This document shows positions 2,041 through 30,100 of a DNA stretch of 64,000 nucleotides, one piece after another. The translations under genes were made by a program, and so were the position numbers. Origin of the DNA: Pocillopora verrucosa (Eukaryota); contig NC_089320.1 in NCBI RefSeq assembly GCF_036669915.1, positions 15,979,874-16,043,873 on the forward strand, written 5' to 3'. The notes below the pieces were generated by a model. The model worked only from the letters and a program-made list of their open reading frames with translations. It was not told where the DNA came from and searched no databases. Numbering within the stretch: the stretch's first letter is position 1; each line of letters begins with the position of its first letter.

Positions 2041-3463
2041 TTGTAACAACACCATTGGCAACACTCAAGGGAAGCCGCAAAATACCATCAAATTGTTCGA
2101 CCAAAAATCCTTTCATTTGACATCAGATAAAGTTAGGTTACCAAAAAAAACACGGCAGTCAAAAGTCGCGCATGCCTCATCGCCCAGAATTCAGCGACAT
2201 ATCCGGGACTTTCATTGAGACGCTGGCGCTAAATTTAAAAGCTAATTAGAAAATGATTGTCAAACAATAAAGGAAAAGGGCTGAAAATGTCGAGGAAGGC
2301 TTACGTTCTCTTCGTTTACGTATAAACTACTTTTCAAATGCTACTTTTACCATATGGCTTTTAAAGAAGAAAGTTCAATTGAACAGTGTATCATTCTCAC
2401 TTTGTTCTTGCGCTTTCAGAAGAGGTCGCAAATTTGCCTTGAAAATTGACTATGTTAGCATCCTGCTTGTATGAGAAGTCGATCTCCACGCACTTTCAGG
2501 CGTAATTTATCTTCACTCAATTGCTAGATTTCTCTTTTACCATATGGTTATTTTTATTTGATATTCTAGAAAGCGTCATAGAAATTTTCAAGGGATTCCA
2601 AACTTTGGAAGTAGTCGCAAAACGCGAATTTCGAAAACGTTTGCTCAGCATCGTAGTGTTCTATCCAAATTTGTCCTTTGGAGACCCCCACGAGAATACA
2701 AGTGACCTATTTTAAACTTCCCGCGAGAATATCAAGGTATGCTAAGCTCCGCCTCCGCAAACAATCGCGCACACGCCGCCTAATTAGTATTGAAATTGAG
2801 GTGGTAACTAGACAATGCTTAAAAAACTGTAAAAGCTTTTAAGATATGATCGCTGAGATCGCTGCAGAAATATTCAGCAATCGTTACTATCATATGGAAA
2901 CCACACTCCTATTATTGTCGCAAGATAGACTTCTATCTCGACGATCGTCGCACTCACAAGCCGGTTGTTGGAAGCATCGCTCATATTTTTCTCTACCGAT
3001 TGAAGCGATTTTCACGAAATAGAAAATAGGCAATAACATAAAACAGAACATCCGGCTATCGACCTCAATCCTTGGTTGGAGGTTCATGGAACCTACTTTT
3101 TTGGCGAGTTCGATTGTTGAACTAATCGAACTTTAAAGATACCATTATTCTCTTACATGCCCCCTATTTGGATTTTTCCTTTGGCTGGTCTTTATGTTTG
3201 ACTCAGAATGAAGTTACTTACTTAAATACGTCTAGCAATGTTTGCAAAATTCAGTATAACCGTTCATTAAAGAAAAGTGTTATTTACAGACAAATGTTAT
3301 GAATTCAGATGCGTAACTATTGGCTACTGCTGTCTAATTGGCTCTAATGTCGCAACTATTGTTCCCTCGAAACAATTAACTTCGGGGAAAAAAGCTGCTT
3401 TAATCATAAGTCTTCTTCAATCGCTAAAGCAACCTAAGTTTCAAGAGTCTCATAATTTCAGTC

Positions 3464-3938
3464 ATGTGTTCCGTACAAGAAATGCAGCGTATTGATCGGG
3501 AGCTCTCATCAGAGCTCGTAGAATCCCCGATCAATCCTGCTTTCATAAATATCTCTGCACCGTTTATGGGTAAGAAAAACCCATCATTTTCTCTTCAACT
3601 CAATGGAGAGGGCCTCTGGCAATGGAGGAAGCTTCATAGCCACAACCAAGTTTTCGATAGCCTACAGGCCAGCTTGGTTAAAGTCGGCTACGAATTATCG
3701 TCGTCTGCTCGCTCTCGAGTTGGGATGGCCGTCTACAGAAGAGTAGACTACATCGTGAAAAAGGCACGTAGCGTCAAAAACAATACAACTCGCCGAGCAG
3801 AGCGATCTCAGTACTGGTGTCAAGTTGCTCTTCACCCAGACGAGATCACCCAAATGCCTGGGGACATTATCCATCAGCTGAAAAGGGAAAATGAAGAGCT
3901 GATTAGCGAAAACCAAGAACTACGAAATGAAATGGAAG
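3464..3938 (+). CDS. Uncharacterised ORF, putative exon 1 of an orphan two-exon gene
   Basis: ATG-initiated 166-aa ORF from the track (MCSVQEMQRIDRELSS...QLKRENEELISENQELRNEMEG). A GT donor at 3939-3940 follows GAA G (phase 1). CCAAT-like ATTGG boxes lie at about 3318-3345 upstream. I recognise no family. Confidence 0.3.
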
Positions 3939-4262
3939 GTACGAAAATAATAGAACATTGTTAGTAAGTGTGCTGGATTACATGCAAGTTAAACCAAGGT
4001 TGACACCAGCTTGAACAGTAGCTTTTGAATTCTGAATGGTCAAATTAGTTTCTGGGCTAATGTTTTTCTTGTATCGACTTTAATTTTAACTCCAGGTGAA
4101 AACCGTACGTATGTAGACTTAAAGTTTCATGTTCACCAATCACCAATTTTTACTACACAGAACTAACACACCGCATACAACTTTAGATGACGAATCTGTA
4201 TTAGTTAACTCTAGTAAAAATATACTTGACTGACTTCTACCCATATGTTACCCTTTGCATAG

Positions 4263-4345
4263 ACAAGGCATCGCAGCTTTACGATGCAATGGCCCAGCTA
4301 AGATGGGGATCTGAGGGGATCAATTTTGGACAGATAGCGTTTTAA
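4263..4345 (+). CDS. Putative exon 2 (terminal) of the orphan ORF
   Basis: Pyrimidine-rich tract plus TTGCATAG acceptor at 4255-4262. Phase 1 joins G|AC to give D, then KASQLYDAMAQLRWGSEGINFGQIAF and a TAA stop at 4343-4345. Support is frame compatibility only. Confidence 0.2.
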
Positions 4346-7300
4346 TTGAGACTTTTGGACCGCAAAGCTTATTCAAGAACGGTTATCCTGTCGATTTAGC
4401 TTTCTGTTTTGAGCTTTATCAAGAGAGTTATACGCCTCTAAAACACCGTGACTTAGTGGTTGTTTGTAACTTTGTGGTGGTACTAGTTGAAACAAACATG
4501 GTTCATTTGACGAAGAGAAAATTAACCTTATGCGTTGTATGTTATTAATCAATGGATTTGCAGAGTCAAAAGGAGAGGAGGAAAACAGGGATTCAACGAG
4601 GATTGGATAAATGGAATGGGAAACAAATAGAAAAATAAAGAAGAACTCGGCGAAATGTAAGTTGTTTGCATCATTGTTTTGTTTTGTAAATAATTCAAGG
4701 CAACAGTTACAATAGGAATTTAAGAACGTCGCCAAAGTTTTTATTCTTCTGATGATTCCGTCGCTTTTTCTCGTTTAGTGCGAAAACACTAAGGTGAAAA
4801 CACCAAGGTGGAAAAAAATCAAATCATTGAAAGTTACATTTTTCGATGTGGAAAAAATTTCCAAGGAAATAATAGTAACCATTTTCATAATAAATTTAAA
4901 ATAATTTTATGACTAAAAAAAATCACCTATTATATTTTCTAGTGGAAAATTAAAGACTGAGCTTAAACAAAGTGAGCAGTTACAACCAGTTAAAAGGTCA
5001 TTTTCAAATAAACAAGTATATGCAACAGATAATACATGTAAGGCGAGTAGTGCAAAGCAACCATTGCCATAAGAATGTAGAAACGCCGCCAACTGATACT
5101 CATTAGTATAATTGCTCAGTTGGATATTGAAATTCTAGCGCCCTGATTGGTCGAGGATTGCGTCATATCTCACTATAATCACCTCACCTAAGATGATTAC
5201 TGCAGGGTTGCGAAATTTTAAAATGACTACCTCGCATTTTGTCGATTTCACCGAGGAAGAGTGAATTTCAATTTCAATTCCTAGGAACCCAAAAGGTGCC
5301 ACTTAGTTTGGCCTAACACTTCTCAAAAGTACCATAGAAGTTTTTGATGTTAAATTCCAGATGAAACTAGTTGCTTATCTCGACACGAGAAACCATAACA
5401 TTTGGAGCAAAACATGCACAAAGTTTTTCCTATTTACAGAATGGTTTCGACGACAAGAAAAATTTACAACAGAATTCGAAAGAATCTGAGCAATTTTATT
5501 AAAATAACTGTTCCCCTCTTTGAATCGGGTGAAAAGCGTCGGAGGAGAAGCTTCATAAGAATTAGTGAAGCGAAGTAATTTAATCAATGTCTGATATATT
5601 GGAAGATTTCCTAACGAACAAACCTTTATAGTTTCCGTATTTTCTAAAGTTCGAAAAAGCTACTGTGGAAATAATAAATATGGTCCCTCAATTTCTCTTC
5701 CAACCACTTTCTTCCTCTGGAGGACCTGAAATACTCCCACATTTACCTCTCCAAGCATTCTCTTTCGAAACGGAACAATCAGAATCATTAATTTTGTCAA
5801 GTGTTGCCTTAAAGTTCTACAGATGGGATAAAAACATATTTTCATTGAATGTCGTCTTAATTTAAGCATATCATCATCAACTTTTCAAAAGGAGGTCTCA
5901 CTTGAGAGATTACAAAGTCAGTTTTGTCTGGCACTTAAGCCGTTTTCAAGCGAACGCAAAGATATCGGCAGAATTAAGATTGCGCTTTCTTCGCAAATTC
6001 AAGTTCCGATTTGAAAAAAGGATTTATTGGTACAGGTTGATAGAAATTTTGCCCAGGAGAATTTGTTTAAGAAACATTCTTGGCTAAAAGCATTTATTTT
6101 TACAGCTTAAAGTAATTTCTTTACTTATTGCTGAGCAGAGCCTCGGCTCTTTTAGCAAGAGAAAAGCATTTCCTGAGTAAAAGCTCTTTTTGCAAGAGAA
6201 AAACCTTTTCTGAGCGAGGGAGGATTATCATCAAGAAAGAGGGCCTTTAACCCCAAAACGGCATTTCTAAACATGGTTGTACTTGTCATTTTAAATCCTA
6301 AATGTTAACCAGTTGTAACTCAAAACTAGTGCTGAACAAATCATAGCAAAGACTTTGGAAGTGAAACACATGACGTAAGAGATAGATAATCAAATGCGTT
6401 ATTGTTTCAGATCCGACAAACTGTGATGGGAGAGTAAGATCTATCGAGTCACTGATGGACGTAACTTGTACATTTACAGATATTACATCAAAAGTTTCAT
6501 CCTTAGGTAGCTTGTGAATCAAATGGTGTATCCATTATTTTTTAAACGAACGGAAAATATTCGAGAAAATCGTTTGAGAACACTCAACATGGCGAGAGAA
6601 TTTTTTTGTTTTATTTCTTCCGGGATTTGTTTGCAAACAAAAAAAATAACGTTCTCTCTTTTTTTTTTTTTTTTTTCATTCAAAAACCATAACAACTTTG
6701 CTTGGATTAAACAATTTTTTAACTTGTTCATTAGAGTCCCTCAAAAGTTAAACAGTTTTGTTTAACACCATACATTCAGAAAAAGCAAAATATTACCAAA
6801 CTTTACCTTTACAAATCTGCTACATAAAAGTAGAACAACAAAAAGTTGGCGAGCGAGATCATGACCTCTGGATGCAACATTCAAAATTATACAAACTAAG
6901 ACAGTCACTTTTTTAGTGCAAGGGATAACTCTCTGACTCTTCCTGAACTTCTCAAGAGAAGTCGTTCTATAGAACATGATTCCTTTTTCCCTTAAGCCAT
7001 TTGCATCGACAAAAACAGTGGATGTTATATTCAAAATTAGCAGCAAAGTCAAAGTTCTCTCCTAATTCAGGTTGCCACGTGCAATTTGTTGAAAAATAAA
7101 TTTGGAGTTCGGGAGACTTTCATCAGTAAAAGTGGATTTTTTTTCATATAAAATGACACAGGTTTTTAAATGAAAAGGATACTTCTCAAATTGAATGGGA
7201 CCTTTTTTACTAGAAACTGAAATATTTCACACACAAACAATAGTTTCTAACTGATATTGCCAACAACGTGAATTTCCACTATTATATTTCGGGAAGTAAA

Positions 7301-8582
7301 AAAAAACTTGTTGTCGGAATTGGAAATATTTTCCCTTCACCAAAAAAAGATGATATTGACGTTTTGACGTCTTTTGTAGCAAAATGAAAATTATCCTAAT
7401 CGTTTGATAGATTTTGAAAGAAAGTATATAGCGCGTGGATGGCGGAAAAATTTTGAGCTTCATAGGAAAAGCTGTGATTTACTCTATGAAATAAAATTAG
7501 TGCTTTCATTAGTTATAGTGGATTTGTTTAAGAATCTTAAAGGACATTTGGAAACACATGGTGTATTTTATTAACGGTAAGAGATCATGACAATTGGATA
7601 ACGGAACAACTTAAACTACATAATTAGGCTGTTTTTTTTAATAAATGGAAAATTCAATAATTTTAAATTAGTAGTCCGCGAAAACTTTTGGACAACTTTG
7701 AAAAGAATTGAAATCTCTTCTGACTCAAGCAACTCACTTAAATAAAACCATGAAGCTTTTTTCGCAATAACACAGAATTGAACCTCATAATGACAAGTAT
7801 TTCAACGCTATGTATTTCTCATTAAGGAAGTTTTCATACAAAATGAACCCAAAGAGGAAAATCTAAAAATTCCGTCACTTTAAAATTTTTTTAGCTCATT
7901 TAATTTTTGTGCGTTATGCTATGTCGTTTTAAGCCTTTTAAATTGAAATCTTTAAGAGAGATTTTGATGTGTTCCTTTAGTGCTCTAGCTGTCTATCAGC
8001 CTATCTGTCTATCAAATAGAGAATATATTTTTGTTTCAAATATACAGATTGAAAATATTGACCCTTCTTTACTTAAAAGGACGGTAATATTTCACTAAAA
8101 AATAACAAAAAACAACTGAGCAGAGGCAAAAGTTTTGTTAGTAAAAAATTTAAAACCAAAATAAAGATACAAATATTTCTTAACACTTGTAAAACAATTT
8201 CTAGAAGTTATTAGAACTATTTGAATCCAAACAAATAACTTTTGAAATTACCTTATCGCCAATATCACTAAAATTTAAATCTAACAGCAAACAAAGTTGA
8301 AAAAATAGTGTTCATCAGACAAACTGGAAACAAGCAAAATGTCTCCTAGAAAAAGTAATGTATGCCTTTGAAAGAGGAAATGCTCTGCATGTCGAATGTT
8401 AAATGATAATCATTTTTACATTTCAAAGTTTTTTTCCCAAAGATATTCTTCTTTTATCCCGTTTTCTCTTGCTTCTTCTGGTAATGCAAATTGCTTGGCT
8501 CGTTCGACGACCGTATCCTTCCATCGTAGTTTAAATTTAAGCTGTAGCTTTGCAATTCTGAGGAGCTTTAATCTTAAAAGGA

Positions 8583-8915
8583 ACAGAAATTTGCTTAATT
8601 TTAACAGCCGCGAGAATTTTTTTCTGAAAAAATAAAAGAAAGAAATCAGAAGAAAGTTCTCGGAGCTCTTGAAATTAAATTAATTTCTGCTTCTTAAAAG
8701 ATTAAAAGGAAAAAGAAAACTGACCAACGGGGCCTTAGGCCCCTTGGAGGTGCTTTAACAACTTAAATTAAACGACGGCGGGGATACGGCCGTCGCCTAA
8801 TTTGAGTTGTTAAATGTGCACTACCGCTAGACCACAGAGGCTTTTGGTAAGAAGACATGGCAAAATTACACTAGAAGTAGGTTTGCTCCCATTGTTAACA
8901 GAAATAATAGCTTGT
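8583..8915. repeat. Left arm of the long inverted repeat
   Basis: Core ...ACTGACCAACGGGGCCTTAGGCCCCTTGGAGGTGCTTTAACAACTTAAATTAAACGACGGCGGGGATACGGCCGTCGCCTAATTTGAGTTGTTAAATGTGCACTACCGCTAGACCACAGAGGCTTTTGGTAAGA... It contains its own hairpins (GGGGCC-TTA-GGCCCC, and a ~30-bp stem from TTTAACAACTTAAATTAAACGACGG to CCGTCGCCTAATTTGAGTTGTTAAA). Confidence 0.9.
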
Positions 8916-9782
8916 GAATAGTATTTGATTCTAAGTGCTATCATCCTCCTGAGACTTGTAATTCTATTGTGTTTACATTACATTTTTGCGTTCTTTTTTG
9001 CAGCTTGCTTGAATTTTATTACTGAAGGAAGAAACCTCTGAAAGTCTCTGTGGGGTTAGTGGTGCAAGTCAAGAGTCGTTTTAAAACCTGTCAAAGTATA
9101 GCAGTAGTAGTGCGAGAAAAAAAGACGTTCAGAAATCTGTGAAGATCTTGTAGTAGTAGTAGTGATGCAAGTGAGAAGTAATTTTATAAAGAAGTGTAGT
9201 AGAAAAGTACAAGTAAAACATTTTAGAATCTATTCGTGAGTGAAAAATCTTTCAAAGTATCTTGTTGTGAAAGTAGTGCAAGTAAAGAGTCGTTCAAAAA
9301 TCTGTCAAAGTCTAGCAGTAATGGTACTAATAGACAATCGGTGAAAAAGTCATTCAAAATCTAGTGCAAAATTAAAAAGTCGTTCTAAAGATCTGTCAAA
9401 TATAGAAGTAGTCGTCAAAAAAACTGTCGAAGACTAGCGGTAGCATTATTCGTAGTGCAAACAAGAAAGTAGTTAAAAATATGTCGTAGTCCAGCACTAG
9501 CAGTGCGAATATAACGTTTTTTAGAAGGTCTCTTAAATGTACAGGTAGCAGTGCAGGTAAAACGTCGTTCAAAGATCTGTCTTAGTCCGGCAAAAAATTA
9601 CTAATAGAAAAAAGTTGAGAAAGTCTTTCAAAATTCAGCAGTAGTGCAAATAATATCTCGTTCTAAAATTTTGTTAAGGTCTAGTAGATGTTGCACAATT
9701 TGAGAGTTGTCGTGCAAATGAAATACTCGTTCAAAATCTGATAAAGTGTAGTAGTAGTGGAAGTACAAATAAAACAAAAATC

Positions 9783-10930
9783 TTTTAGAGAGGGGTAGTG
9801 TAAATAAGACTCGATCAAAATCTATCAGTGTAGTAGTAGTAGTGTAAATAAGACTCGATCAAAATCTATCAGTGTAGTAGTAGTAGTGTAAATAAGACTC
9901 GATCAAAATCTATCAGTGTAGTAGTAGTAGTGTAAATAAGACTCGATCAAAATCTATCAGTGTAGTAGTAGTGTAAATAAGACTCGATCAAAATCTGTCA
10001 GTGTAGTAGTAGTAGGGCAAATAAGAGTCGTTCAAAATCTGTCAGTGTAGTAGTAGTAGTAGTGTAAATAAGAGTCGTTCAAAATCTATCAGTGTAGTAG
10101 TAGTACTGAAAATAAGAGTCGTTCAAAATCTATCAGTGTAGTAGTAGTACTGAAAATAAGAGTCGTTCAAAATCTATCAGTGTAGTAGTAGTAGTACGAA
10201 TAAGAGTCGTTCAAAATCTATCAGTGTAGTAGTAGTAGTGCAAATAAGAGTCGTTCAAAATCTGTCAGTGTAGTAGTAGTAGTGCAAATAAGAGCCGTTC
10301 AAAATCTATCAGTGTAGTAGTAGTAGTGCAAATAAGAGTCGTTCAAAATCTGTCAGTGTAGTAGTAGTAGTGCAAATAAGAGTCGTTCAAAATCTGTCAG
10401 TGTAGTAGTAGTAGTGCAAATAAGAGTCGTTCAAAATCTATCAGTGTAGTAGTAGTAGTGCAAATAAGAGTCGTTCAAAATCTATCAGTGTAGTAGTAGT
10501 AGTGCAAATAAGAGTCGTTCAAAATCTATCAGTGTAGTAGTAGTAGTAGTGCAAATAAGAGTCGTTCAAAATCTGTCAGTGTAGTAGTAGTAGTGCAAAT
10601 AAGAGTCGTTCAAAATCTATCAGTGTAGTAGTAGTAGTGCAAATAAGAGTCGTTCAAAATCTGTCAGTGTAGTAGTAGTAGTGCAAATAAGAGTCGTTCA
10701 AAATCTGTCAGTGTAGTAGTAGTAGTGCAAATAAGAGTCGTTCAAAATCTATCAGTGTAGTAGTAGTAGTGCAAATAAGAGTCGCTCAAAATCTATCAGT
10801 GTAGTAGTAGTAGTGCAAATAAGAGTCGCTCAAAATCTGTCAGTGTAGTAGTAGTAGTGCAAATAAGAGTCGTTCAAAATCTATCAGTGTAGTAGTAGTA
10901 GTGCAAATAAGAGTCGCTCAAAATCTATCA
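9783..10930. repeat. Homogeneous sub-array, 44-46 bp unit (~26 copies)
   Basis: First variant GTAAATAAGACTCGATCAAAATCTATCAGTGTAGTAGTAGTA (9800-9990), then GCAAATAAGAGTCGTTCAAAATCT[A/G]TCAGTGTAGTAGTAGTAGT. Near-identical neighbours. Confidence 0.95.
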
Positions 10931-11900
10931 GTGTAGTAGTACAAGTGCGAAAAAGAGTCGTTGAAAATCTGTCAGTGTGTTGTAGTAGCAGTAATAGTGC
11001 AAATAAGAGTCGTTGAAAATCTGTCAGTGTGTTGTAGTTGTAGCAATAGTGCAAATAAGAGTTGTTGAAAATCTGTCAGTGTGTTGTAGTTGTAGCAATT
11101 GTGCAAATAAGAGTCGTTGAAAATCTGTCAGTGTGTTGTAGTTGTAGCAATAGTGCTAATAAGAGTCGTTGAAAATCTGTCAGTGTGTTGTAGTAGTAGC
11201 AATAGTGCAAATAAGAGTCGTTGAAAATCTGTCAGTGTGTTGTAGTTGTAGCAGTAGTGCAAATAAGAGTCGTTGAAAATCTGTCAGTGTGTTGTAGTAG
11301 TAGCAATAGTGCAAATAAGAGTCGTTGAAAATCTGTCAGTGTGTTGTAGTTGTAGCAATAGTGCTAATAAGAGTCGTTGAAAATCTGCAAGTGTGTTGTA
11401 GTTGTAGCAATAGTGCAAATAAGAGTCGTTGAAAATCTGTCAGTGTGTTGTAGTTGTAGCAATAGTGCTAATAAGAGTCGTTCAAAATCTGTCAGTGTGT
11501 TGTAGTAGTAGCAATAGTGCAAATAAAATCTGTCAGTGTTGTAGTTGTAGCAATAGTGCAAATAAGAGTCGTTGAAAATCTGTCAGTGTGTTGTAGTTGT
11601 AGCAATAGTGCAAATAAGAGTCGTTCAAAATCTGTCAGTGTGTTGTAGTAGTAGCAATAGTGCAAATAAGAGTCGTTGAAAATCTGTCAGTGTGTTGTAG
11701 TAGTAGCAATAGTGCAAATAAGAGTCGTTGAAAATCTGTCAGTGTGTTGTAGTTGTAGCAGTAGTGCTAATAAGAGTCGTTCAAAATCTGTCAGTGTTGT
11801 TGTAGTAGTAGCAATAGTGCAAATAAAAGAGTCGTTGAAAATCTGTCAGTGTTGCAGTAGTTGTAGCAGCAATAGTGCAAATAAAAGAGTCGTTGAAAAT
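10931..11900. repeat. Second sub-array, 52 bp unit (~18 copies)
   Basis: Unit GTGCAAATAAGAGTCGTTGAAAATCTGTCAGTGTGTTGTAGTTGTAGCAATA. GTGCAAATAAG recurs near 10997, 11049 and 11101. Abrupt switch from the 44-bp variant at about 10930. Confidence 0.95.
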
Positions 11901-11950
11901 CTCTGAGTGTTGCAGTAGTAATAGTGCAAATAAGAGTCGTTGAAAATCTT

Positions 11951-12052
11951 AGAGTGTTGTAGTAGTAACAGAGCGAATAAAAGAGTCCTTGAAAATCTGT
12001 CAGATTGTAAGACTCTTTTATTTGCAATACTACTACCACACTCTGAAAAAAA
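11951..12052. repeat. Single inverted unit inside the array (local palindrome)
   Basis: AGAGTGTTGTAGTAGTAACAGAGCGAATAAAAGAGTC ... loop CTTGAAAATCTGTCAGATTGTAA ... GACTCTTTTATTTGCAATACTACTACCACACTCT, after which the direct orientation resumes. Confidence 0.85.
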
Positions 12053-13104
12053 GAGTGTGATAATGGTACTCCAAATAAAAGAGTCATTCAAAATCTGTCA
12101 GGGTGTTGTAGTAGTAGTGAAAATAAAAGAGTCGTTCCAAATCCGTCAGAGTGTAGTAGTGGAAGTGCAAATAAGAGAGTCGTTCAAAATCTGTCAGTGT
12201 GTAGTAGTAGTGCCAACAAAATAGTCGTTCGAAATCTGTCAGAGCGTAGATGTAGCAGTGCAATTGAAATGTCTTTCGAAGTCTAATAGTAGTAGTAGTG
12301 CAAGTAAAAAACTCGTTCTAAAAGTATGTCAAAGTTTCGCAGTAGTAATTTAGGTGAAAGTCATTAAAAATATTTGTCGACTGTAGAAGTAGTAGTGCAG
12401 TTGAATAGTCGGTTTAAAATTTTTCAAATTCTAGCGGTGGTAGTGCAAATTAAAGTCTTTGATAAAAATCTGTCAGTCTAGCAGTAGTAATGTAAATAAG
12501 AAAAAAGTCATTAAAAAAACCGTTAGACTAGTAGAAGAATTGCAAGTCAAAAGTCTGTCACACTGTAGAAGTAAAAAATGGAAGAGAAAAATTGTTATAT
12601 AATCTTTCAAAGGTAGAGTGTAGCTGCAGTGTTAGTAAGAGAAAGAAAAATAAACACCAAAAACGTCACAGTTTCGACTAAAGATTTATTCACATATTTT
12701 CATTTATATTTGTCAATGTCTTGAACTTCTTCCTTGTCAGAGTTCTAACCCTAAAGAGATCGAAAACAAATATTTTATTTTTGAAAGTTCACTACGATAA
12801 TTGCATGCAGAGTTTAAACCACAAATCTCACGTACGTAAAATAAATGTTTTATGTTAATTCTAGTTTCCACGCTTTTCTCGACCCTTGTGTAACCCTTTG
12901 CATTAAATTCGTAAGGAAATTGTTTAGTTTGAGTTTTGAGTGGCAGGAATTATTTTGGGCTGAAAAGTTTACCATAAAGTTAGAGAGCATTTATTTAGAG
13001 GAGAGTGGGTCGATCATAAAACGGTTGTTCAACATATGTTTTGTACATAGGTAAGGATGCAAACAGTGCATGTTTAACATTCCCAAGAGGGTGATACATG
13101 TACT

Positions 13105-13445
13105 GAGTGAACCTATTGTTTCTATCAACAATGGGAGCGAACCTACTTCTAGTGAAATTTTGCCATGTACTCTTACCAAAAGCCTCTGTGGTCTAGCGGT
13201 AGTGCACATTTAATAATTCAAATTAAACGGCGGCTGGATCCCCCCAGCCGTCGTTTAATTTAAGTTGTTAAAGCACCTCGGAGGGGCTCAGGCCCCATTG
13301 GTAAGTTTTCTTTTTCTTTTTAATCTTTAAAGAAGCAGAGTTGATTTTAAGATCTCAAAAGATATCTGCTGGAATCTTTTTTCTTGGAAAAAAAATTTCC
13401 AGACAAAAATTCTCGGAGATCTTAAAACTAAAAATATTCTGATTA
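13105..13445. repeat. Right arm of the long inverted repeat
   Basis: Reverse complement of 8583-8915. Includes CCTCTGTGGTCTAGCGGTAGTGCAC (tRNA A-box-like) and GGCTGGATCCCCCCAGCC (B-box/T-arm-like hairpin) about 43 bp apart. Confidence 0.9.
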
Positions 13446-15068
13446 CGGAGTAAAAGGAAATTTACAATTTTAAATAAACAACTGAGGATAAAATGGCTGC
13501 CGTGTCGTGCGCTTTAAGTTTTGCACAAAACCACAAAAACACGGTGGAAACAGTTACTAAACATAAATGGGAAACCATTACAGTATCTGGAGAAGGAGAG
13601 GGGTCTTTGCATTATATTCGGTAAAATTGAACATAAAAATAAGTACTGGTTTAAACAAACTTGGGCAGGGTTTACTTTTTGAAGTATTGAGAAAAACTAA
13701 TGGCTCTGCAAAATGTGCATAAAAATAAAAATATTTCTGTAAACTTAAAGAACTTGAAATAAACCTGTAATCCAACGAAATTTTGGTACTTGGAAACTAA
13801 AAGGAAATTATTTTTCCCCCACTCCCCGCCCCCGTAAAAAAAAAAAAAGAAAAAAACGGAAATCCAATCATTTCTTCGCCTTACTAAATGCAGTCACAAC
13901 TTTTACCCCGTGGTTTTCTGTTTTTGTATTTTAGCAAAATACCATTTCAGTCAGAGTATGTTATTTTTTAATTCCTTTTTTACCGTGGGAAATATTTGCT
14001 TAACCTTAACCAAATTCTTGATTCTTTAGTTAATAGCTCCTACGTTAAAGATACAGAATTTTCAACTTCACCACGATCTTGAAATAGATTTAAAAAACGG
14101 TTTTTGAAACTTTGATCAAGTGGTCAGCTGTTTAGGTTCTTAACATACAACTTCATGAAAAACTAAGCAGTCCCCATCAGGCTAAAAAGCAATCACTCCA
14201 TAAGTAAAACTGGGAAGTCCAACTCGTAAATGCATTTACGCAGTAATCATTTTGTGGATTAAAAAATTACCATTACTAAAACTTTCTCGTCAAAACTTTT
14301 TTATGGACAGTCATAAAAAATAGTCCATTGGCTATTTTATGCAACATCTACCCCGTCAGAAATTTGAAATTGGTGAAAAACTTTTGGCATCCATTCTACG
14401 GACTAAAATTTTCCTAAGACAAACTGAATGACATTATGCTTCATGCTAATTTGTTGTAGCGTGCTTCCCTTGGTAATTGTGGCTGTCCTTGGTGAGTTCT
14501 AATAACAAAGTTGAGAAATCTCCTGCGTGAGACAAATGCCTGGGTTTTTTAAGCATGATTAAACACCCACCTTTCTTTGGAAAACATTTCTCTTATAAAA
14601 AAAAATCACTTCTTTTTCAAAACTATTCACCCGACAAGTTTAATTGCAAGACAAGATATCGTTCCTTTTGTTTTCACAAGTTGAAGCATAAGTCATCATC
14701 ATTTCCTGTTTTTTGTGAAATGTGCTTCCATGAGAATTTCAGGAAAAGGTTAAAAATTAATTCTAAGCGCACACGATATTTAAAGAAAAGAAATCGCTCT
14801 AATTGGTGAAATTTCACAGGATGGTTCACAACCTGGCTCGTCTATAGATGACCCTCCCAGCGTTCTGTTTTTTTTTTTTTTTTCTGCTTGTTTCTGTTTT
14901 CGTTCGTTTACCCTTCCTAAATGTTCCATGCTTGCTAAAGAAAATGTAGTTAATATTTTGGGCCTTTCTAGGAGGAAAATGGTTCCGAAAATTTTAGAGT
15001 AAAAAAAAGCAGATAAAATAGCAACCCTCGAGGCAAGCTCAAGAGAGAGATTTAGGGAACATACCTTT

Positions 15069-15560
15069 AACTGCCGCTTATAAGTTCGAGGCTGATACAA
15101 CTTTGTAAGGATCGAGTTTTTGGAGGGCGTATATCCGAGTAGGCTCATAACCGGACTAGAAAAAGCGCTTCGAAACGAGCTACATAAGTGCTGGTCAAAA
15201 TACATTTTTTCTTTACTTCTTTTAATTAACCTCAAAAACGTCAGTATAAATCGAATTCATTTCAATAGATTGGAACATAATTAAAGGTTTAGTAAGTACA
15301 AAAGGATTTGATAATTTAAATTTATTATTCTGCAAAAAATTTCAAATTTTCTGTTAAAATTACAGGTGTAGTACTGAGTTCCTGTCTCAAAACAAGAAAA
15401 GAAAAGCTAGAGGAAGGCTTACGGACGGATATGTTTTTTTTTGTTTTCGGGCTAATGGGCCGATATCCAGTAAGGGGGGGGTGGGATATAAGTGAGGGGA
15501 GGGGTGGGGTATAAGTGAGGGGAGGGCTTTTAACTGGCGGGAGGCTTATAAGCGGCAGTT
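15069..15560. repeat. Perfect 16-bp inverted repeat pair flanking a G-rich low-complexity segment
   Basis: AACTGCCGCTTATAAG at 15069-15084 and its exact complement CTTATAAGCGGCAGTT at 15545-15560. The interior includes GGGATATAAGTGAGGGGAGGGGTGGGGTATAAGTGAGGGGAGGG. Possible small MITE. Confidence 0.55.
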
Positions 15561-18324
15561 TACGGTGTATTTCTAACGAAAGTTTTTTTTGCTCCTCGCG
15601 AAAAGTAAACAAAAAAGGGAAATTCATTTTGTTCTCTACGAAATTCTGAAAACTCGTCAGCTATCCAACAAATTCCTTTTTCCTCACCAAAAGCATTCAC
15701 AGACAATACTCCGGGAGCTTTAAACTTTTACTTTTTTCTTTTTGCAATAAAGCCATCACTTGGAGAAAATAGATGCCACATAGTGAAACTGAAAATTTGA
15801 GAAATTGTCATTTTTCCAAATAATCTCCAAAAACTATTTCTGGTTCAACAGTAAATTATTTAGATTTTAGATATATGAAAATTCACATATTTGCACTGCG
15901 GTGGAAAGATGAAAAAAGGGACCTCGCAGCTAAGAACACTACTGGAACGAGTAGTTGTAAATAGGACCTGAAAAAAATTCAGGCCCGTACGGGGGCCTGA
16001 TACGATATCTTCTGATAAAAATATAACAAATGTTATGTATTCGTTTTCAGTTGAATTGTTTTTCTTTCACTCAGATACCTGCAGGGACGCTCAGTTCATT
16101 GCATGATCTCAAACAATATTCTTCAAGGTTTAGAAAGTATATAATTTGAATCATCGCGCAGAATGCTGCTGTCTTTCGTGACATGTACTTACAGTGCCCA
16201 GTTTATCAACGGGCGGAATATCAATTTGCTTGTCTAGAACTAGTCAGCTGTGATTGGTCAACAGTTCTTTCTACTGATCCTATGTCTTCAATGATTGATT
16301 AATTGAAAATACCCAAGAAATTTAACAATTTACCACGTGTATGAACTTACTTCAGATAAAAATTACGTTTACGCTTGGTTCTACCATATATTTTAGTCAC
16401 ATCTGCGCAATTTTAAGCAAAACCTTTCCGTTTTTAATGTAACTCGGTTGAGAAATATTCCTTTTGAACTCAAAGCCTGTTAATCTAGTTTTACGAAGTT
16501 TTAAGCGGTCATTTTCCGAAGCTTTTTTAATTCCTTCAGCTCTGAAGTTCATCTGTTTCAAAATTTTCTGCCGTAAGAAAATAGTTTTGATTTTTCAGTT
16601 TTAAAACTTTTGCAACTAACCGGAATGTTCCTGGAACTTAGCAACGAGAAGCAAAAAGGTAAACACAACGCCTTGAAAACGTCCCTATATCAACTTAATA
16701 CTTTGTCATTGTTAAAATTTTTGGCCACGTTCTCCAAGTTACATTGTAATGGATTGCCTTGGTTCGTCGATGAATTCAAAGCTTCAACATCCCCCCGGGC
16801 AACTCGTTGGGTATTTGAACTTTTGAATATTGGTTAGTTCAAATTGTCGTACTCGGGATTAAAATTATGTTCAATTGCCACACTTAAGGGCCGTATTTGA
16901 AGGTCAATATTTTCGTAAAAGGCAAAATTAGCGACCGTGACTTTCTTCTTATATACCAAGCTTGAAAACCTACAAGTTGTAGACCTTTTGTTCTGAGCCA
17001 TTTACTCGCGATAGTGAACTCTTTACTTTTAAAAACCTCCATATTAGGAGATAAAACTTGTGTATTTCACTGGAAATACTTGACACTTCCGCTTCAAATT
17101 CCCCAACCCAGCCAAGCAAGGTTCAAATTCTCCGCCCATCGGGCACAGACGGCCGTCAAGTGCCCGTGGCTTGCCCTGGGGGAGGGGATGTTCAAGCTTC
17201 AAATCAATCGGGGCATCATTACATTGTAGTTGACTGCCTTAATTTACCAGAAAAACAAAACAAAACAAAAAAAAAAATTGAACAACTCACGTTTAGCTGA
17301 GTTCTTTGCTTCACTTCGTTCGTTTCATATTCTCAGTTTCCAACCCTCTATTCCATAACAGTTTTCTTGTCTGTTTCCACCTCATTATTCTGCGAATCCA
17401 ATAAGTACGTTGATTACTGACATGATAAGCCAAATAAACCAACAAATAAGAATAGAAACAAAGAAAAAACACCGCCAAATGTTTGACTATTTAATTCTTT
17501 ATCCGTGAGCTAAGCTGTCTAGTACGTTGCAAACTTGTTCTACTAATCTTGTTAGGGTCTTAATAGTTGTACTTTTAGACGGCGTCGGCTGGAAAGATTA
17601 TTCTAGAAGTCATCTGTAGGAATAGATCTTTTTTTTTCTTACAGTGTCCTTAGTGGTCTCGTCAGAGATATTCAACAAAAGCAACGAGGCTAACAACAAC
17701 CGGAAGATAGTGGCTTCCTAATCAAAGCAGTTGAAGATCTTCGTTTAAGTTCTCCAAACGTCGGTAATTTTTATTGACGACAGTTCGAACATCAGTAAGT
17801 AAGAACATCACAGTAAGTAAGAACATAAGAACATCAACATCACGTCAAACAATAAATAGTTTTCGTCTAACATTATCAAATGTGTTTCTAAGACAATTAA
17901 ACAACACTGTGCTATTCTCGCTAGGGAGAACAAGGTTTAAATTTTGCAGCATTTGTTCATGTATGGTTTATTTTTATTCTTTGCAGACTGACTGGTGAAT
18001 GTCCTTGGTACTTCAAGCAAAAATCAAACAAGAAAGACTGATCCGAGTGAAATACATAATCTATTCTAAGGTACATAATAGATGTGGCGCATTTCTTTCA
18101 AGATTTTCGTCTCTGCTCACGTTGTAATAACGTCAGTTACGGCGCCTCGCATGTTTTCAAACCTTTGTTTGGTTCTTCTGTTGCTATTTTCAAGCTTGCC
18201 TGTTCGAAATTTCACTTTTAATTAATGAAAAAAAACTAGAGAGAAGTCGCGGAGAAGGTCGGACATAGTACAATTTTGCAGATGGCGTGACAACTTTAGC
18301 TCAGCTTTTTTCTATTTAACAAAT

Positions 18325-19769: not shown

Positions 19770-22700
19770 CTACACTTGTACGTGAAATTGCCGCTCGAGG
19801 TGTCGTTTGAGGTGGAAAGATTGCAGCCAGCTATTCCATATTTTCGTTTTTCGATTTGTTCAATTTTGTCCTACTAGTTGTTTTGGCCACTGCCATTGTA
19901 TCAAGTACATTACTAAGATGTTTAACTATTAAACCTTATTGTTGTTTTCAACTTTGCAACTGGTTTATGACACTGACCGAAAGCACCCTACAATCCACTT
20001 TCCTTGAATATTTCTGCGCAATTAGTACAATAGAAAAATTCTTTTACTAAAGATCGAACGCACTTTACAAATCTTTGATTATTGCTAGTTTCTCACGATA
20101 AAGTATCTTTAAGCCGGCCGACTGTACCAACATCTAACACTAAAATGAATTGAAAAGCACGAAACGAAGTTAACAAAAAATCAATTTTTGAGCATACTCT
20201 TTCAGTTAGTTTAAGCCTCAAGAGCTCAGAATTAAAAAAAATTGGTTCGGAGATTGAATCGCATCACAAAGACGCAGTTGATGTCAAACTCTATTAGCAA
20301 TTTGAGAGACAATGACCAACTTCTGAACATACTGTTCACTTTGGTTGAAACCTAGCTAAGACCTCAAGCATTTTTAATGATTAGGTTCGTATATTATGCA
20401 TCAGTTGATGATAAACCTTAGCAGCAATTTGAGAAACAAGCACTGGTAAACTCATGGAACATACTTTTCCAATTTGCTTTAAGTTCTGCGAGCTCAAACG
20501 TTTCAAATAATTAGTCGCTAAGAAATTTATTGAAATCGCTTCATGTGTCAGTTGATGTTAAATTTAACAAGCAATTTGCGACACAAAAATCAATTTGGAG
20601 AATACCACCACAAAATACCACCAGAAAGTGTTAGTACTCAGGCTCGAAGATTTTTATTAAATCATGTCAAAAAAAGACTCTGTATAATTGGACGGAAAAC
20701 GCAAGAATAACTTGTCAATAAAATCTACTTTTGGAGTATACACTTTTAGTTTGGTTTAAACTTAACTTCATAACACTTAGGCTCCAAGGGTTTTCCGTTT
20801 GAATTGAAAAAAGGTTAATTCTTGTAAGAAAATGTAAGACTATTAACCTTGTCAGAGATGTAAAAAAGAATTCAGGAAAAAAAGATAATTGTAAGAGCAT
20901 ATTGATATTTTTTTTCAGTAATTTTAAAGCTCCAAGAGCTATATTGAAGGAGGTAAAAGAGTGAGAACTTACCAGACTATAACCTATCGAAGATCTAAAA
21001 CAAAATTCTATAACTTAGTCGGAGAAAAACAAAATATGACATCGTGTTTTGCCTTAAGAGCCGAGACATTCAGGCTTTAGGTTGACCGAAATTTGTCATC
21101 AAATGAACGCCCTACTTAGCATTTTATGTTGAGATATTTCGTTGACAGTGGTGAGACAAATAAAAAGTATTCATGGTAGGTTAAAATCGTTAAACGCAGA
21201 CAAACAGGCCTAGATAAATTATATTTTGCAAAAAAAGGAAGTAATCTGACCTTGTTAGGAGTTGTCATGTATTTCCTTCCTTCCTTGAAGTTGTTGATTT
21301 CGTAGTGCTCTAATTTTCTTCTTGATAATGTCCAATGGAGAAAAAAAAAGAGACAAATATATTATGAAGACTTACGCACCTGAGTGCTATTCGTTCTAAA
21401 TGATAAATGTCAACGTCTGAATTAAAAAACTCATTTATAGCCACCAAATTTTTTTGTTGACAAATTTCATGTCCTTTACTCTTACTGAACAAAGGCATTA
21501 GGGAATTTACAGGTTTCCTGACAATGCAGATTAAGGTAAGGACTACCCTCCGCGGCCTCTGTATGAAAGATGGGAACCAATTCTCTGATAAACAGATACA
21601 GAGTCTATGTTATTAGGCTTTCTCGATTACCGTCTCTCTCTGTTGGAATTGAAGGTAAAGGAAAGAACAAGTGCGTTTGAAACGCATTTCAGGTCAAAAC
21701 GCTATAATCATAAAAGCTAGTTGAAAAAATATGCACAGAAATGAAAAGAGAAATGAATAAACAAGCGGTAAGTACACAAACAATATACAAGTAGTAACAA
21801 CTTCTTGCGTTGTCACTGAAGTCATGTTCAAGAAGAGCTGTCATGGCGGTTGCTAATTAGGATTTTTCCTGCACAATGCTATGTGCATTACGCTCTTCCT
21901 TGTCACATTTAACTCTATATATTTATTTTACAATGCCCACAACGAGAAAGACGAACACTGTCTTTCTATCCACACACATTTTTCCATTTACCTGAAGAAA
22001 CGACGCGACAAAGTGAAAAGCACAAATCCTCGACATGGTATCTAGACCACTTGATCCAGCATAAAGACACTGGCAGACCTGGACAGAACAGATAGTATCC
22101 AAGGTAATAGGGTCGAAATGACGTGTTTCTTGACTCCTTAGAAGCTGAAAAAGACGCTAAAAGTTGTCGTAGTTTGCAAGCTCTTTGCACGTGCAAGACT
22201 GAACTGACCGAGCGCGGTCGTGAATATCAATTTTGAAAGTTATTTGCAATTCAAATGAGTTTTACGACTTGAAAAGGTGAGTTCAAAATAATCGACACAG
22301 TTCTTCGGTCGTATAACGAAATAGGATTCCTTGCTTTCCACTGATATTCTACTTGAAAAAGTTGAATAGGGTTGTAGTCTCAAAAATATCTTCTAAACTA
22401 AACTAAAATGAGCTTAAACTTAAAATTTTGCTTGAACAGCATTTTTAAGTCATTACAGAAGCCTATAACTTGGGCTTGCCATGACTTCCTGGTACTTTTT
22501 TTGTGTTTCTTTTCCATGGACACTGATTTCGAGTTAAAATGGTGCTGCTATTTTCCAATCTGCATCAGTGTCGACGAAACATGTTACAGACGAAGGAACT
22601 GTTTTATTCGGCTATTCGAGGCACGTATATGATTTCAATAGCGGAGCTTAAATCGAGCGTCAAGTTCAAACGCCACGAGGCCCCATACTTGTAAAAAGTA

Positions 22701-27100: not shown

Positions 27101-30100
27101 CTGATCCCACCACTTGGTATAACTGCAGAGACGAAAACGCGAAGAAAAAAAACAACAACAAAATTAACAGAACGCAAAGCAACGAAACAAAAAAGGCAAA
27201 ACAAAACAAAACAGATGAGCAAAAACAACGCTATTATTTTGATCTAACGACTCTTAATCAGAAAATCAGAATACGCTTTAAGCTCTATCACCTTTTTCTG
27301 TTCTTGGACGCTCTCAAGTCCCATGTTGTGTTGTGGTGCAAATAATAATCACTAGGCAGTTCCCAAATTTTGTGTTTTTCCTGTCGCGGTGAAAATATCC
27401 CAAGGAACAGATTCATGGCTTGTTGCTTGTCAGCATCTGCAAAGGGCCAGCAAAGAGACAAATAGAAAATAATGCGCTGATGTTATTAAAAAAAACAAGC
27501 AGAGGGTTGTGGGTAGGGGGAGGGCACAGCTGAAATTTCGAAGAAACGCCATATTGGTAAAAGGGCCATTTTGTTGCATTAGTCTACTTGAACTACACGC
27601 TGTAATTGCTTCAGAAATTTGTACAATTTTCTCGACCAATCAGATACAAAACAAAACCAATGACGACTGGGTCACTCGCGTTTTCCCGCGCTTCAAGCAG
27701 TTTAATATATACATTTAGCCAAGCCTAAAATCGGAGCTCGCATTTTTTTTTTCCCGCACGTCTCAAGGGCACAACGCCTTCCCCCGGCCAGGACTAGAAC
27801 CCGGGTCGTCTGACTCGGAGCCCAGTGCACTGACCACTGGACTACTGAACAATGCCGTGGCGTTGGCATACCCGCTGTACAGTTGACCACGCATGTTAAA
27901 AGTAGCACCTTGTAGGGTCGTACATCCAAATTTTTTTGGCTTCATGGGTTACTGCTATCTTGTATAATTATGGGGCTACGTTCTGCGAGCTCCGCTATAA
28001 TTTGAATCCCATTCCCTTCCAGTAATAAATCCTTTCCTTTAATTGGCCGTTGTGATTACTCAAACGAAACGCGCTCCATGAAGAGACCCATGCTAAGATG
28101 ACAGGGAAAAAAATATAGCGATAAACAACTTGGATGCAAATTAGAGTTCTCTTACCCGTGAATGCGTTGCTGTAATAGCGAGATACTGTCTGCATTATAT
28201 CCCTTGAGTGAGAAGTGAACGGCGACACCTTACGATACGTGCGAATTCTGAGAAGACAAGGACCGTGGGATAAGGAAAAACACATCGCTAAATGGAGAGA
28301 ATTCAGGTACCAATTGCAGCGTCAATCTCACTATATTTATTGGTCTACTGGATTGACGTGCATTGCTATCAATGGTGTATACGATTTCTCTTGCTCATAT
28401 TACAAATGCCTCACCCGTGCACAAGCTGGGATCCTCCATACTGTAAAGCAAGAGTATCGCCATGAGCTTCGTAAAGATCTTCCAAAATCCTGAAAAAACA
28501 AGGCAAAATACTTCAATACAACGGTTACAAATAGTTTACATTTCAGGACCAGAGTGGCCTGCCGAACAGGCCTATTCAAGATAATTTTAGAGAGATAAAA
28601 CAACTATGAACAATTATAGTAAAACTTCCTTTGATAGGTCACTCGTCGACCAAGTAGAAAGCAATTCTTGGACCCTCTGTTAATTTGATAGTATACCTCA
28701 TTATACTCCTGGCCCCGGTTGATCGGTTGGTCGGTTAACGCTATCCACAGGATAAATCTCTATCCTGTGTATAACGCTATACGTTTTGCTATCACTTATC
28801 CGCTGGATGGCGATTTATCCGTTGGGTAGCTTTATCCACCTTTTATACAACTGGGCCCTGGATGGAGGGGGAGGGGGGACTAAGAAGGGTTCGGTGTATT
28901 GCCCAAAAACAAGCGTGCTAAGAATTGAGCCAGCACGTTTTCCTCAACAAGTACTTAACCCTCTAACTCCCAAGATCTCATTAGCAATTCTCCTAACTGT
29001 CTACCATGCAGTTCTTGTGATGTTAGTTTGGAGAATTTGATATTGGATCAACTTATAATCTCCTAACTGATATTTTTCTTTATTCCCATCACTTGTCTAC
29101 TTGATATTGTATTGATATCGTTAAGAGAAATTCTGTCTTGATCACTTATGGGAGTTAAAGGGTGAAATAAGCAGTAATTTCAGAGTGTATTTTATTCCAC
29201 AGTGCTTTAAACAAGGCGGAAATGATCAAACATACCTCACAGCATCGGAGTCAAACTGAAGAAACGGTTTGTCAATCACTCCTAACGCATGCAACTGGAA
29301 AGAAAAGCAGCGGATATTATAGCGTATAGTAACCGTGTGATAGCAGGTAATCTTAGCTACAGGGATGTAGGCTGTTAATCAAGATCTAAATACAAATTAT
29401 TGGGTCCCTAGAGCTCAGTGTACTCATTAAAATCTAACAATCTGTGACTGACGAATTAACGATCACTACCGACAACATCAACTCATTCCCCGACACATTA
29501 ACGACGCGTTCACAGACACACTGCCAAATGCGCCTCTAAACACAGTGTGTCCGTGAACGTGTGAACATTTTGCAGAGAAATTACGTAAACGCTTTGTCAA
29601 CGTTTTAGTGGTGTATCTGTGAACGTGGTAGCAGTTTGTAGGTGAACACCGCCCACACACTGTTTCAACTTTTGAAATTTCATCACAATATAATATACTC
29701 ACCTGAAAACCAAGAGCACATTTACCGACCATAAACTGTGCAGTGTTTGTTCTGTCCAGACAATCTACGCAGTTTGTCCGGAGTACACCATTCTTAGGAT
29801 GAGAAAAAAAATCACGCTGTAAGCAGACTTTGGTGACATGATATTTTGGCATTTAAAAAAAGGAAACTGTACATTGTCATTTCTTAGTTTATCATGACGT
29901 GCAAACGTAAGTACGCTTTAGCTTGAGATAGATTAGAAAATTTGTATCCCAAGTGACGTTTTCAAGACAATGTAAACTGCAAGTAACACTACTAGAAACA
30001 ATAACAAAACAGGGTGCACACTGGCAACTAATTAATAGAATATATCCAAAGAGTTGAACTAAAGAAAAATGAGACTAAATTCATTTATCGACAAGATGAA

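Follow-up and report, generated by a model that had tools for sequence, protein, structure and literature searches.

The window analysed here is a stretch of 64,000 nucleotides from Pocillopora verrucosa (contig NC_089320.1). Toward its left end lies a 4.9-kb composite in which two inverted arms enclose a minisatellite array. An earlier reading of the letters alone, referred to below as the sequence-only reading, had described the arms as reverse complements of each other with nested hairpins. It had proposed that the composite is either a mobile element resembling a miniature inverted-repeat transposable element (MITE), caught with a greatly expanded core, or else two inverted copies, resembling a short interspersed nuclear element (SINE), that bracket a satellite. 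Here we describe the composite, compare it with diverged copies of the same locus, and weigh what the arms may be.

Anatomy of the composite

When both arms were compared with the window by BLASTN, positions 8584-8913 paired with 13441-13110 as an inverted repeat (80.1% identity over 342 columns, E = 3e-83), in agreement with the reverse complementarity reported before; a third copy of the arm was not found in the 64-kb window. A profile made from all recovered arms (nhmmer) lengthens them to 8556-8929 on the minus strand and 13096-13461 on the plus strand. In the list of features that follows, each arm and its modules are given on the strand that reads from the inside of the composite to the outside.

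8556-8929, minus strand: left arm as a whole, by profile (nhmmer score 374; BLAST pairing)
8562-8715, minus strand: left outer module, an imperfect palindrome of ~150 nt (inverted repeat 8567-8627 against 8646-8706; z = -5.9)
8575-8583, plus strand: TAAAAGGAA, left member of a 9-bp direct repeat that may be the target-site duplication of the whole composite (read in the sequence)
8716-8841, minus strand: left conserved core, a putative 126-nt hairpin-RNA unit (minimum free energy -56.5 kcal/mol, z = -7.2)
8842-8913, minus strand: left upstream conserved block with AACAATGGGAGC, TAATTTT and a 9-bp hairpin (invariant alignment columns)
9040-9794, plus strand: left margin of the array, with ~16 degenerate ~48-bp units (anchor segmentation over 9062-9783, 3-10 errors per 26 nt, spacing ~48)
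9795-10944, plus strand: homogenised block, 27 units of 44 bp with sub-variants (anchors 9798-10945, 0-3 errors; Tandem Repeats Finder (TRF) period 44)
10945-11816, plus strand: homogenised block, 17-18 units of 52 bp (anchor spacing 52, to ~11817; TRF)
11817-12042, plus strand: transitional units of 47-58 bp, the last of them (11997-12042) inverted (anchor spacing; inverted pairs all converge on 11997-12042)
12043-12620, plus strand: right margin of the array, with ~11 degenerate ~48-bp units (anchors reach ~12564, 2-10 errors; TRF periods 48 and 93, 80-83% matches)
12621-13095, plus strand: unique right spacer without repeat structure, with a conserved block at ~12690-12789
13096-13461, plus strand: right arm as a whole, by profile (nhmmer score 381; BLAST pairing)
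13110-13181, plus strand: right upstream conserved block (arm alignments and fold)
13182-13309, plus strand: right conserved core, a putative 128-nt hairpin-RNA unit (minimum free energy -57 kcal/mol, z = -7.0)
13310-13461, plus strand: right outer palindromic module (z = -2.9; Rfam matches to microRNA (miRNA) hairpins are generic and far under the gathering scores)
13451-13459, plus strand: TAAAAGGAA, right member of the 9-bp direct repeat (read in the sequence; 9 nt past the BLAST arm end)

Folding recovers the nested hairpins that had been claimed for each arm, i.e., a GC hairpin and an AT-rich stem. The GC hairpin reads GGGGCCTTAGGCCCC at 8729-8743 in the left arm and GGGGCTCAGGCCCC at 13283-13296 in the right arm. 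The long AT-rich stem has a GC-rich tip, measures 34-37 bp and lies at 8750-8821 and 13202-13276, respectively. The cores of 126-128 nt fold at about -57 kcal/mol, and none of 200 shuffled sequences was equally stable. Two further structures are absent from the earlier description, namely the palindrome formed by the outer ~150 nt of each arm and the 9-bp hairpin at the inner arm end. The left outer module is less conserved than the left core.

To number positions in the cores, a putative +1 was set at the motif GCCTCTG, that is, at 13182 on the plus strand and at 8841 on the minus strand. Reading from its 5' end, the left core contains GCCTCTG, the A-box-like motif TGGTCTAGCGGTAG, the long hairpin, the GC hairpin and a T-run at 8716-8719. 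In the right core, TGGTCTAGCGGTAG lies at 13189-13202 (+8 to +21), the tip of the long hairpin is the T-arm-like GGCTG-GATCCCC-CAGCC at 13232-13248, and the T-run is at 13306-13309. The right upstream block contains the 9-bp hairpin at 13112-13135, CAACAATGGGAGCGAACCTAC at 13127-13147 (-55 to -35) and AAATTTT at 13155-13161 (-27 to -21), all relative positions in this arm being counted from the putative +1 at 13182. The 5' ends of both arms, which resemble those of transfer RNA (tRNA), point toward the array.

Between the arms, the sequence-only reading had seen about 26 and then about 18 homogenised units with decaying edges. TRF and the anchors give nearly the same picture, with 27 units of 44 bp and 17-18 units of 52 bp. 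The 44-bp period is called by TRF with 90% matches, and the 52-bp period over 10944-12003 with 20.6 copies. Anchor spacing in the 44-bp block is occasionally 41 or 47, and the 44-bp units from 10238 to 10926 are near-identical. The 52-bp block is common to the window and a close relative, the scaffold L008 (see below). Units of the array were not found elsewhere in the window. Positive GC skew is strong across the array (window 9000-13000, up to +0.45), with the plus strand being the G-rich strand throughout; this skew agrees with the single orientation of the array units.

Two ideas about the unit were tried and set aside. One is that it derives from the arm, as similarities to GTAGTGCA.AT and CTCTGTGG might suggest; these local alignments do not beat shuffles. 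The other is that the octamer-like TGCAAAT in the unit is a selected site; the logo of 91 units is broadly conserved (AGTGCAA, AAAAGTCGTT) and not motif-specific.

The composite had been said to have no coding capacity, and this holds: its open reading frames (ORFs) are generated by the repeats, do not exceed 98 amino acids (aa) and have no match in Pfam. Exact look-ups of the ORFs adjoining the composite in the protein collection were also without a match. Coding exons beside the composite were considered, i.e., a C-terminal-looking ORF at 8416-8530 and an exon with an ATG at 13484. This reading was rejected because indels between the copies of the locus shift the frame and neither ORF has a Pfam match.

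Diverged copies and the history of the locus

Homologues were retrieved with chimeric six-frame translations of the arms and of the array, which were compared with a protein collection; the contigs encoding the matching proteins were then compared. This retrieval rests on the spurious ORFs that metagenome gene callers predict in non-coding DNA. Gene-caller 'proteins' that read through the minisatellite occur, for example, at L008 2825-3685 (P0106, 286 aa) and at L006 35-370 (111 aa), and the 52-bp unit, when tripled, gives rise to a 52-aa period in the spurious catalogue proteins.

Every match obtained through these protein proxies is the locus under study, and the order arm-array-arm was met again in two further copies, which are more diverged (identity ~70-80%) and lie on independent scaffolds of TARA Pacific. 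The recovered sequences are of three types. To the window type belong L008 and L009, which match the window at 93% and 91%, respectively, in the spacer and the right half of the array. L008 continues through the right arm into the flank (93-96%), and L009 stops at the inner arm edge; L008 and a scaffold that bears the exact ORF of the window's misato homologue come from one sample. The L003 type is represented by a single scaffold, which holds the entire composite with no N gaps. The L021 type comprises L004-L007 and L021-L036, from 18 samples; L021 itself holds the entire composite on a 99-kb scaffold, again with no N gaps, and the others hold parts of it. By profile search of 189 kb of DNA, arms occur only in these composites. 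The arm and array motifs gave no exact-pattern match in JGI metagenomes, GTDB genomes or IMG/VR, and neither the arm sequences nor the TARA sample identifiers had a match in the full text of the literature.

Both diverged types align in collinear order with window positions ~2035 to ~17786, at 65-82% identity. Alignments of the flanks pass unbroken through the outer arm ends, and the shared block ends rather sharply at ~2020 and ~17795. Because every copy has the same flanks, we conclude that the composite recurs by descent of a segment of 10-16 kb, and not by transposition of a 4.9-kb unit. Recurrence as a unit, a possibility raised by the sequence-only reading, is thus correct in that three diverged copies hold arm-array-arm, but the flanks are always the same.

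A three-way comparison groups the types as ((window, L021 type), L003 type). We regard them as likely paralogues in Pocillopora genomes rather than orthologues of different lineages. In favor of paralogy, the L021 type is present in 18 TARA samples with 0-4% diversity within the type, like the window type; TARA misato sequences near the query are only of the 97-100% Pocillopora kind; and the block has discrete ends and differing neighbours. Against it, the window type never shares a sample with the L021/L004 or the L003 type (12, 18 and 1 samples, respectively), an outcome whose chance we roughly estimate at ~0.1 if both types were in every genome. In a sister-genus lineage the misato protein is 82% identical and the DNA, including upstream non-coding sequence, is 83% identical, so that orthology at ~70-80% non-coding identity is conceivable.

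The shared block differs among the copies by indels. Window positions 2175-4348 (~2.2 kb), with an ORF of 166 aa at 3464-3964 that has no Pfam match, are missing in L006, L021 and L023 and are probably an insertion in the lineage of the window. Another ~2.5 kb, at 14352-16910, is partly present in L003 and missing in the L021-type copy, and is an indel inside the shared block. The right-hand neighbour of the L021-type block is a proline-rich ORF of at least 271 aa (L021 1-489), which runs off the locus and for which tblastn found no counterpart in the window.

The array of the other copies has stayed degenerate, with 48-bp units that match at 67-76% (55 TRF copies in L021); a consensus drawn from 91 degenerate units, with all three copy types represented, reads AGTCTAGTAGTAGTAGTGCAAATAAAAGTCGTTCAAAATCT. 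The distance between the arms is 4196 nt in the window (8914-13109), 4183 nt in L021 (6122-10304) and 2808 nt in L003 (2750-5557), and the unit counts are ~74, ~70 and ~40, respectively. That is, the window and L021 have near-equal inter-arm distances despite a sequence difference of ~25-30%. Because the degenerate L021 is alike in both distance and unit count, the array of the window was homogenised, not expanded: its centre has been re-homogenised in place into the 44-bp and 52-bp blocks, with length and unit number almost unchanged. This points to array turnover that is conversion-like, in place, rather than to expansion. The array has the same orientation in all copies, which rules out its inversion between them.

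The arms, in turn, are informative as to age. Over their full length, right arms are 80-84% identical to right arms and left arms 81-85% identical to left arms, whereas left and right arms share 71-79%. Indels and substitutions specific to one side recur across the copies; for example, right arms read GGCTGGATCCCC-CCAGCC and left arms GGCCGTATCCCC----GCC. Because the arms group by side and not by copy, the inverted repeat is older than the split of the three copies; this grouping also contradicts strong concerted evolution of the arms.

As to how the inverted repeat came about, the composite is enclosed by the 9-bp direct repeat TAAAAGGAA, whose two copies are identical; the chance of an exact match of at least 9 nt between two 25-nt flanks is ~0.003. 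Equivalents of the repeat are kept, with substitutions, in the other copies. Because of this bracketing repeat, a single ancient foldback or MITE-like insertion is a candidate origin, and we give it and a local inverted duplication roughly equal weight. Both copies of the repeat read TAAAAGG.. in the window and TAAAAT.. in L003; left and right show one and the same G-to-T difference, for which parallel change, conversion or chance may account.

We therefore consider it highly probable that the locus is an old and immobile inverted-repeat frame around a minisatellite, inherited with its flanks. The composite arose once, before the three copies of the 10-16 kb block parted, and has been passed on with these flanks since then.

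Constraint on the arm cores and its interpretation

Between copies, same-side core identity is 87-93%, as compared with 72-79% in the flanks (Fisher p 1.5e-3 to 2e-9). The core is defined here as alignment columns 25-200 (~175 nt), and gaps were excluded, a choice that favors the flanks. The left core is 87-89% identical to those of the other copies and the left flanks 75-79%; the right core is 91-93% identical to those of L003 and L004 and the right flanks 72-77% (Fisher p = 2e-9 and 4e-5). When identity is plotted in a sliding comparison of the window with L003 or L021, the top peaks, of 0.89-0.94, stand on the arm cores (0.93-0.94 on the right core), over a background of 0.55-0.8 and a median, for L021, of 0.69. 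Other nearby blocks reach 0.84-0.89, namely 8440-8589, 12690-12789 and 14090-14339; in the right spacer, positions 12690-12849 are 0.81-0.86 identical to L003 and L021. In every copy, the rate of change in the central ~175 nt of either arm is thus ~2-3 times lower than in the DNA around it.

Read outward from the array, the conserved interval contains, in this order, the AACAATGGGAGC block (~-55 to -35), a TAATTTT box (-27 to -21), GCCTCTG, TGGTCTAGCGGTAG, the long hairpin, the GC hairpin and the T-run. Its helices are 93-100% paired in all seven arms (RNAalifold and pair counting), with 92% of cells paired. By our own count, wobble-type changes on the inside-to-outside strand affect ~11 pairs and A·C-type changes 4-5. 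Because the former outnumber the latter, the inside-to-outside strand is weakly favored as the strand of a putative folded RNA. In the outer palindrome, left and right arms are set apart by one clear compensatory change (T-A versus G-C), amid many broken pairs; three pairs have both-sided changes, and the covariation term is unfavorable.

These features suggest that the arm core may be a functional unit derived from a tRNA-like gene of RNA polymerase III (Pol III). We take TGGTCTAGCGGTAG, at +8 to +21, to be A-box-like and to resemble the 5' half of tRNA-Glu. The right-arm tip, at +51 to +67, has a 5-bp stem and a 7-nt loop and is T-arm-like. The A-box, T-arm and promoter readings of the cores are our assumptions, made from motif and from position relative to the consensus. 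An A-box-like motif, a T-arm-like hairpin with its stem stretched to 34-37 bp, the GC hairpin and the T-run would together yield a hairpin RNA of 126-128 nt. Such RNAs would be transcribed outward from the array, with the minisatellite upstream of either unit.

That the cores are hairpin-RNA genes is a tentative proposal, to which we give chances well below even; otherwise, they would be constrained cis-regulatory or DNA-structural elements. A more specific version is rather improbable. In it, the arms would be pocilloporid-restricted Pol III small RNA genes, exapted from a tRNA-like element and pointing away from the minisatellite, which they would share as upstream sequence. Each arm would make an RNA of ~127 nt whose T-arm is extended into the 34-37-bp hairpin, as a precursor resembling an endogenous short hairpin RNA or miRNA, or else as the structural RNA of a ribonucleoprotein, and the module would be intact in at least three diverged copies.

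Several observations count against the interpretation given so far. ARAGORN found no tRNA or transfer-messenger RNA in the window, and no Rfam family reached its gathering score there. On the arms, Rfam returned only generic miRNA-hairpin matches, at 27-34 bits compared with gathering scores of 63-94, and no tRNA, Y RNA, vault RNA or small nuclear RNA. The core has one both-sided change, and its covariation values over the seven arms equal those of shuffled controls; hence, the kept pairing may reflect mere sequence conservation. Polymorphism within the L021 type affects 6/181 sites in the core and 61/745 in the outer flank, and is lower still, at 2/189, in the inner spacer; the constraint on the core is moderate, not extreme. 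The right copy of the 9-mer is offset by 9 nt from the arm end. Dispersed copies of the arm or array were not found by a search that is insensitive, covering as it does spurious metagenome ORFs and ~190 kb of DNA. Lastly, the status of the three types as paralogues or orthologues stays an estimate, although the main conclusions are independent of it.

Other identities of the cores were considered and not accepted. A spliced-leader RNA would have a conserved GT donor or an Sm site in consistent orientation, and inspection of the alignment found neither. A splice site at the invariant CTTACC/GGTAAG has no matching acceptor or ORF. A Y RNA was likewise dismissed, its closing stem not being supported.

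How, then, do other explanations of the composite fare? The sequence-only reading had leaned toward a MITE-like or foldback mobile family, caught with a greatly expanded tandem core at an early stage of satellite birth. The anatomical part of this proposal stands, since the long inverted arms, the internal array and the lack of coding sequence resemble tandem-repeat MITEs and foldback elements (PMC3879986, PMC4079207), the outer ~150 nt of the arms form a MITE-like palindrome, and the exact 9-bp repeat brackets the composite (P ~0.003). Dispersal and expansion do not stand. All recovered copies have common flanks for kilobases on both sides, copies in other contexts were not found in the proxy searches and the 189 kb, left and right arms differed from each other before the copies parted, the array shows no expansion when set against the degenerate L021 (4183 versus 4196 nt), and array and arms are unrelated in sequence. 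A mobile family is on these grounds very unlikely, and we hold just as little of two independent tRNA-derived SINE-like insertions in opposite orientation around a pre-existing minisatellite, in which case the composite would be coincidental. Each arm does have A-box-like and T-arm-like motifs at tRNA-gene positions, and this much of the second proposal of the sequence-only reading survives. Each is also flanked by imperfect direct repeats (ATTCTGAG / ATTCTAAG on the left, TACTGAGTGAA / TACGGAGTAAA on the right), but these are not significant (P = 0.17 and 0.06, respectively). The arm homology begins ~85 nt upstream of the tRNA-like +1 and spans the same outer palindrome, neither of which retroposed SINEs would share, and this speaks against independent insertion. 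An A-rich or simple-repeat tail is absent, proxy and profile searches revealed no further family members, and neither ARAGORN nor Rfam made a tRNA call.

A more serious contender, albeit still an unlikely one, is that the composite is a neutral relic, i.e., a functionless local inverted duplication whose cores are similar through gene conversion between paralogues or through hairpin-templated repair. The lack of a covariation signal, the ambiguous pattern of polymorphism and the conservation of other nearby blocks at 0.84-0.89 are all compatible with such a relic, and ectopic conversion is possible if the copies are paralogous. Yet the same ~175-nt interval is conserved in both arms of all three copy types, and side-specific differences lie inside the cores, so that conversion would have to act per side and be confined to the cores; the asymmetry of the wobble-type changes, moreover, favors one strand. 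By contrast, an assembly artefact, in which a collapsed or mis-joined repeat fakes the inverted arrangement, is almost inconceivable, even though tandem arrays and inverted repeats are notorious for being misassembled. The sequence-only reading had warned of this, but the composite is carried by independent scaffolds: L003 and L021, assembled from short reads of other samples, show arm-array-arm without N gaps, L008 repeats the window-type array, spacer, right arm and flank (93-96%) and shares its sample with the scaffold bearing the exact window misato ORF, and L009 repeats array and spacer (91%). The homogenised 44-bp and 52-bp blocks are not verifiable by short reads, and the risk of misassembly is limited to the copy number of these units.

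Our preferred reading is therefore the immobile inverted-repeat frame with constrained cores, inherited with its flanks, and as a whole, with no need for the RNA-gene step, we judge this account to be somewhat more probable than improbable. For the study of satellite evolution, the locus offers a clean natural comparison, in which one ancestral 48-bp array is held in the same frame in three copies, one of them homogenised. For coral genomics, the interest lies in the two hairpin cores of ~175 nt, which are candidates for lineage-specific non-coding RNAs or regulatory elements derived from tRNA-like sequence; should they prove unexpressed, the locus would be an ordinary, tidy repeat relic. As regards method, homologues of a non-coding locus can be traced through the spurious ORFs that metagenome protein catalogues contain.

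Neighbouring sequence and comparison with known systems

The misato homologue of the window, for which Pfam domains were found, spans 42.9-45.6 kb. The translation of its exon at 42944-43663 has 97-98% identity to TARA Pacific proteins from coral metagenomes, and the 97% cluster includes P. damicornis RMX59802.1. The exact ORF of the window is recorded in 58 blocks of the protein collection; the 10 places listed are without exception TARA Pacific coral scaffolds. These matches identify the host, a eukaryote, as a Pocillopora coral. A GC-rich patch (GC 0.49-0.53, AT skew -0.37) holds two ORFs rich in Arg and Ser, of 491 aa and 134 aa, on the minus strand at 49640-51949; from their translation we take them to be an SRRM-like splicing-factor gene. 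Other ORFs, again by translation, are presumably SAC-domain-like (~29.5-35.6 kb), GDSL/PAF-AH-like (54.3-55.4 kb) and SURF6-like (60.6-61.8 kb). A repeat of ~80-150 bp is dispersed over the window (28961-29109, 33135-33289, 37856-37969, 39324-39391 and 48842-48924) and is present in L006 (6927-7079) and L021 (16083-16217); unlike the arms, it is a genuine interspersed family. A longer repeat, of ~60-70% identity, occurs at window 21126-22425 and on both sides of the L021 block (L021 907-1260 and 16256-17618), and is likely an old transposable element.

Known tRNA-derived Pol III units include the heads of SINEs, the exapted BC1 RNA of rodents and the combined tRNA-like and pre-miRNA transcripts of the herpesvirus MHV68. 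The arm cores are like these in the A-box-like motif at +8 to +21, the T-arm-like stem at +51 to +67 and the T-run after the GC hairpin, as well as in having a long hairpin of the size of a Dicer substrate and in being conserved as a unit after immobilisation. They differ in that no tRNA model matches them, acceptor-stem pairing is lacking, and conservation extends ~70-85 nt upstream of +1. Furthermore, the long hairpin includes the T-arm-like tip instead of being placed after a complete tRNA-like domain. Compared with tRNA-derived SINEs in particular, the arms end at their 3' side in a palindrome and not in a tail, their start is not at +1, and dispersed copies were not found, in searches of limited sensitivity.

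A second comparison is with Y RNAs. The 5' motif of the core, UGGUC....GGUAGUG, presumably resembles the 5' ends of vertebrate Y RNAs, and the upstream A/T box at ~-25 would be compatible with an external Pol III promoter. With Y RNAs and stem-bulge RNAs (PMC4726728), the cores share a size of 100 +/- 20 nt, a GUGC/GCAC helix and a 3' U-run. In contrast, Rfam gave no Y_RNA match at E up to 10, a bulged-C site for Ro60 is not recognisable in the cores, the closing stem between the 5' and 3' ends is weak, broken in several arms and uncompensated, and the interior is a perfect 34-37-bp hairpin, not a loop.

For the composite as a whole, the nearest systems are tandem-repeat MITEs and foldback elements. 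DTC84 of Donax trunculus is a dispersed, high-copy element; it has no more than five core repeats, its inverted repeats are short, one of its ends bears a microsatellite, and its target-site duplication is AA (PMC3879986). The composite is like DTC84 and the pearl-related elements of oysters in being non-coding, in having its array in a cassette of inverted-repeat modules, in the ordered repeat variants of the array and in palindromic sequence within the repeats or array (PMC3879986). In contrast to DTC84, the arms here are ~370 bp long, the composite measures 4.9 kb and has ~74 units, the candidate duplication is of 9 bp, and the copies share their flanks; a dispersed family was not found by the proxy searches and in the 189 kb, which together are insensitive. 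The foldback element Tetris of Drosophila virilis is multi-copy and mobile, with tandem repeats of ~220 bp that lie inside the terminal inverted repeats and are hence inverted (PMC4079207). Tetris and the composite both have long inverted arms, are non-autonomous and non-coding, and contain tandem repeats able to form arrays of kilobase size. Unlike in Tetris, the array here lies between the arms and has a single orientation except for the unit at 11997-12042, the arms are without array units, and the array unit was not seen at other sites. The composite thus departs from tandem-repeat MITEs and foldback elements in dispersal, size and repeat placement, and resembles them in anatomy.

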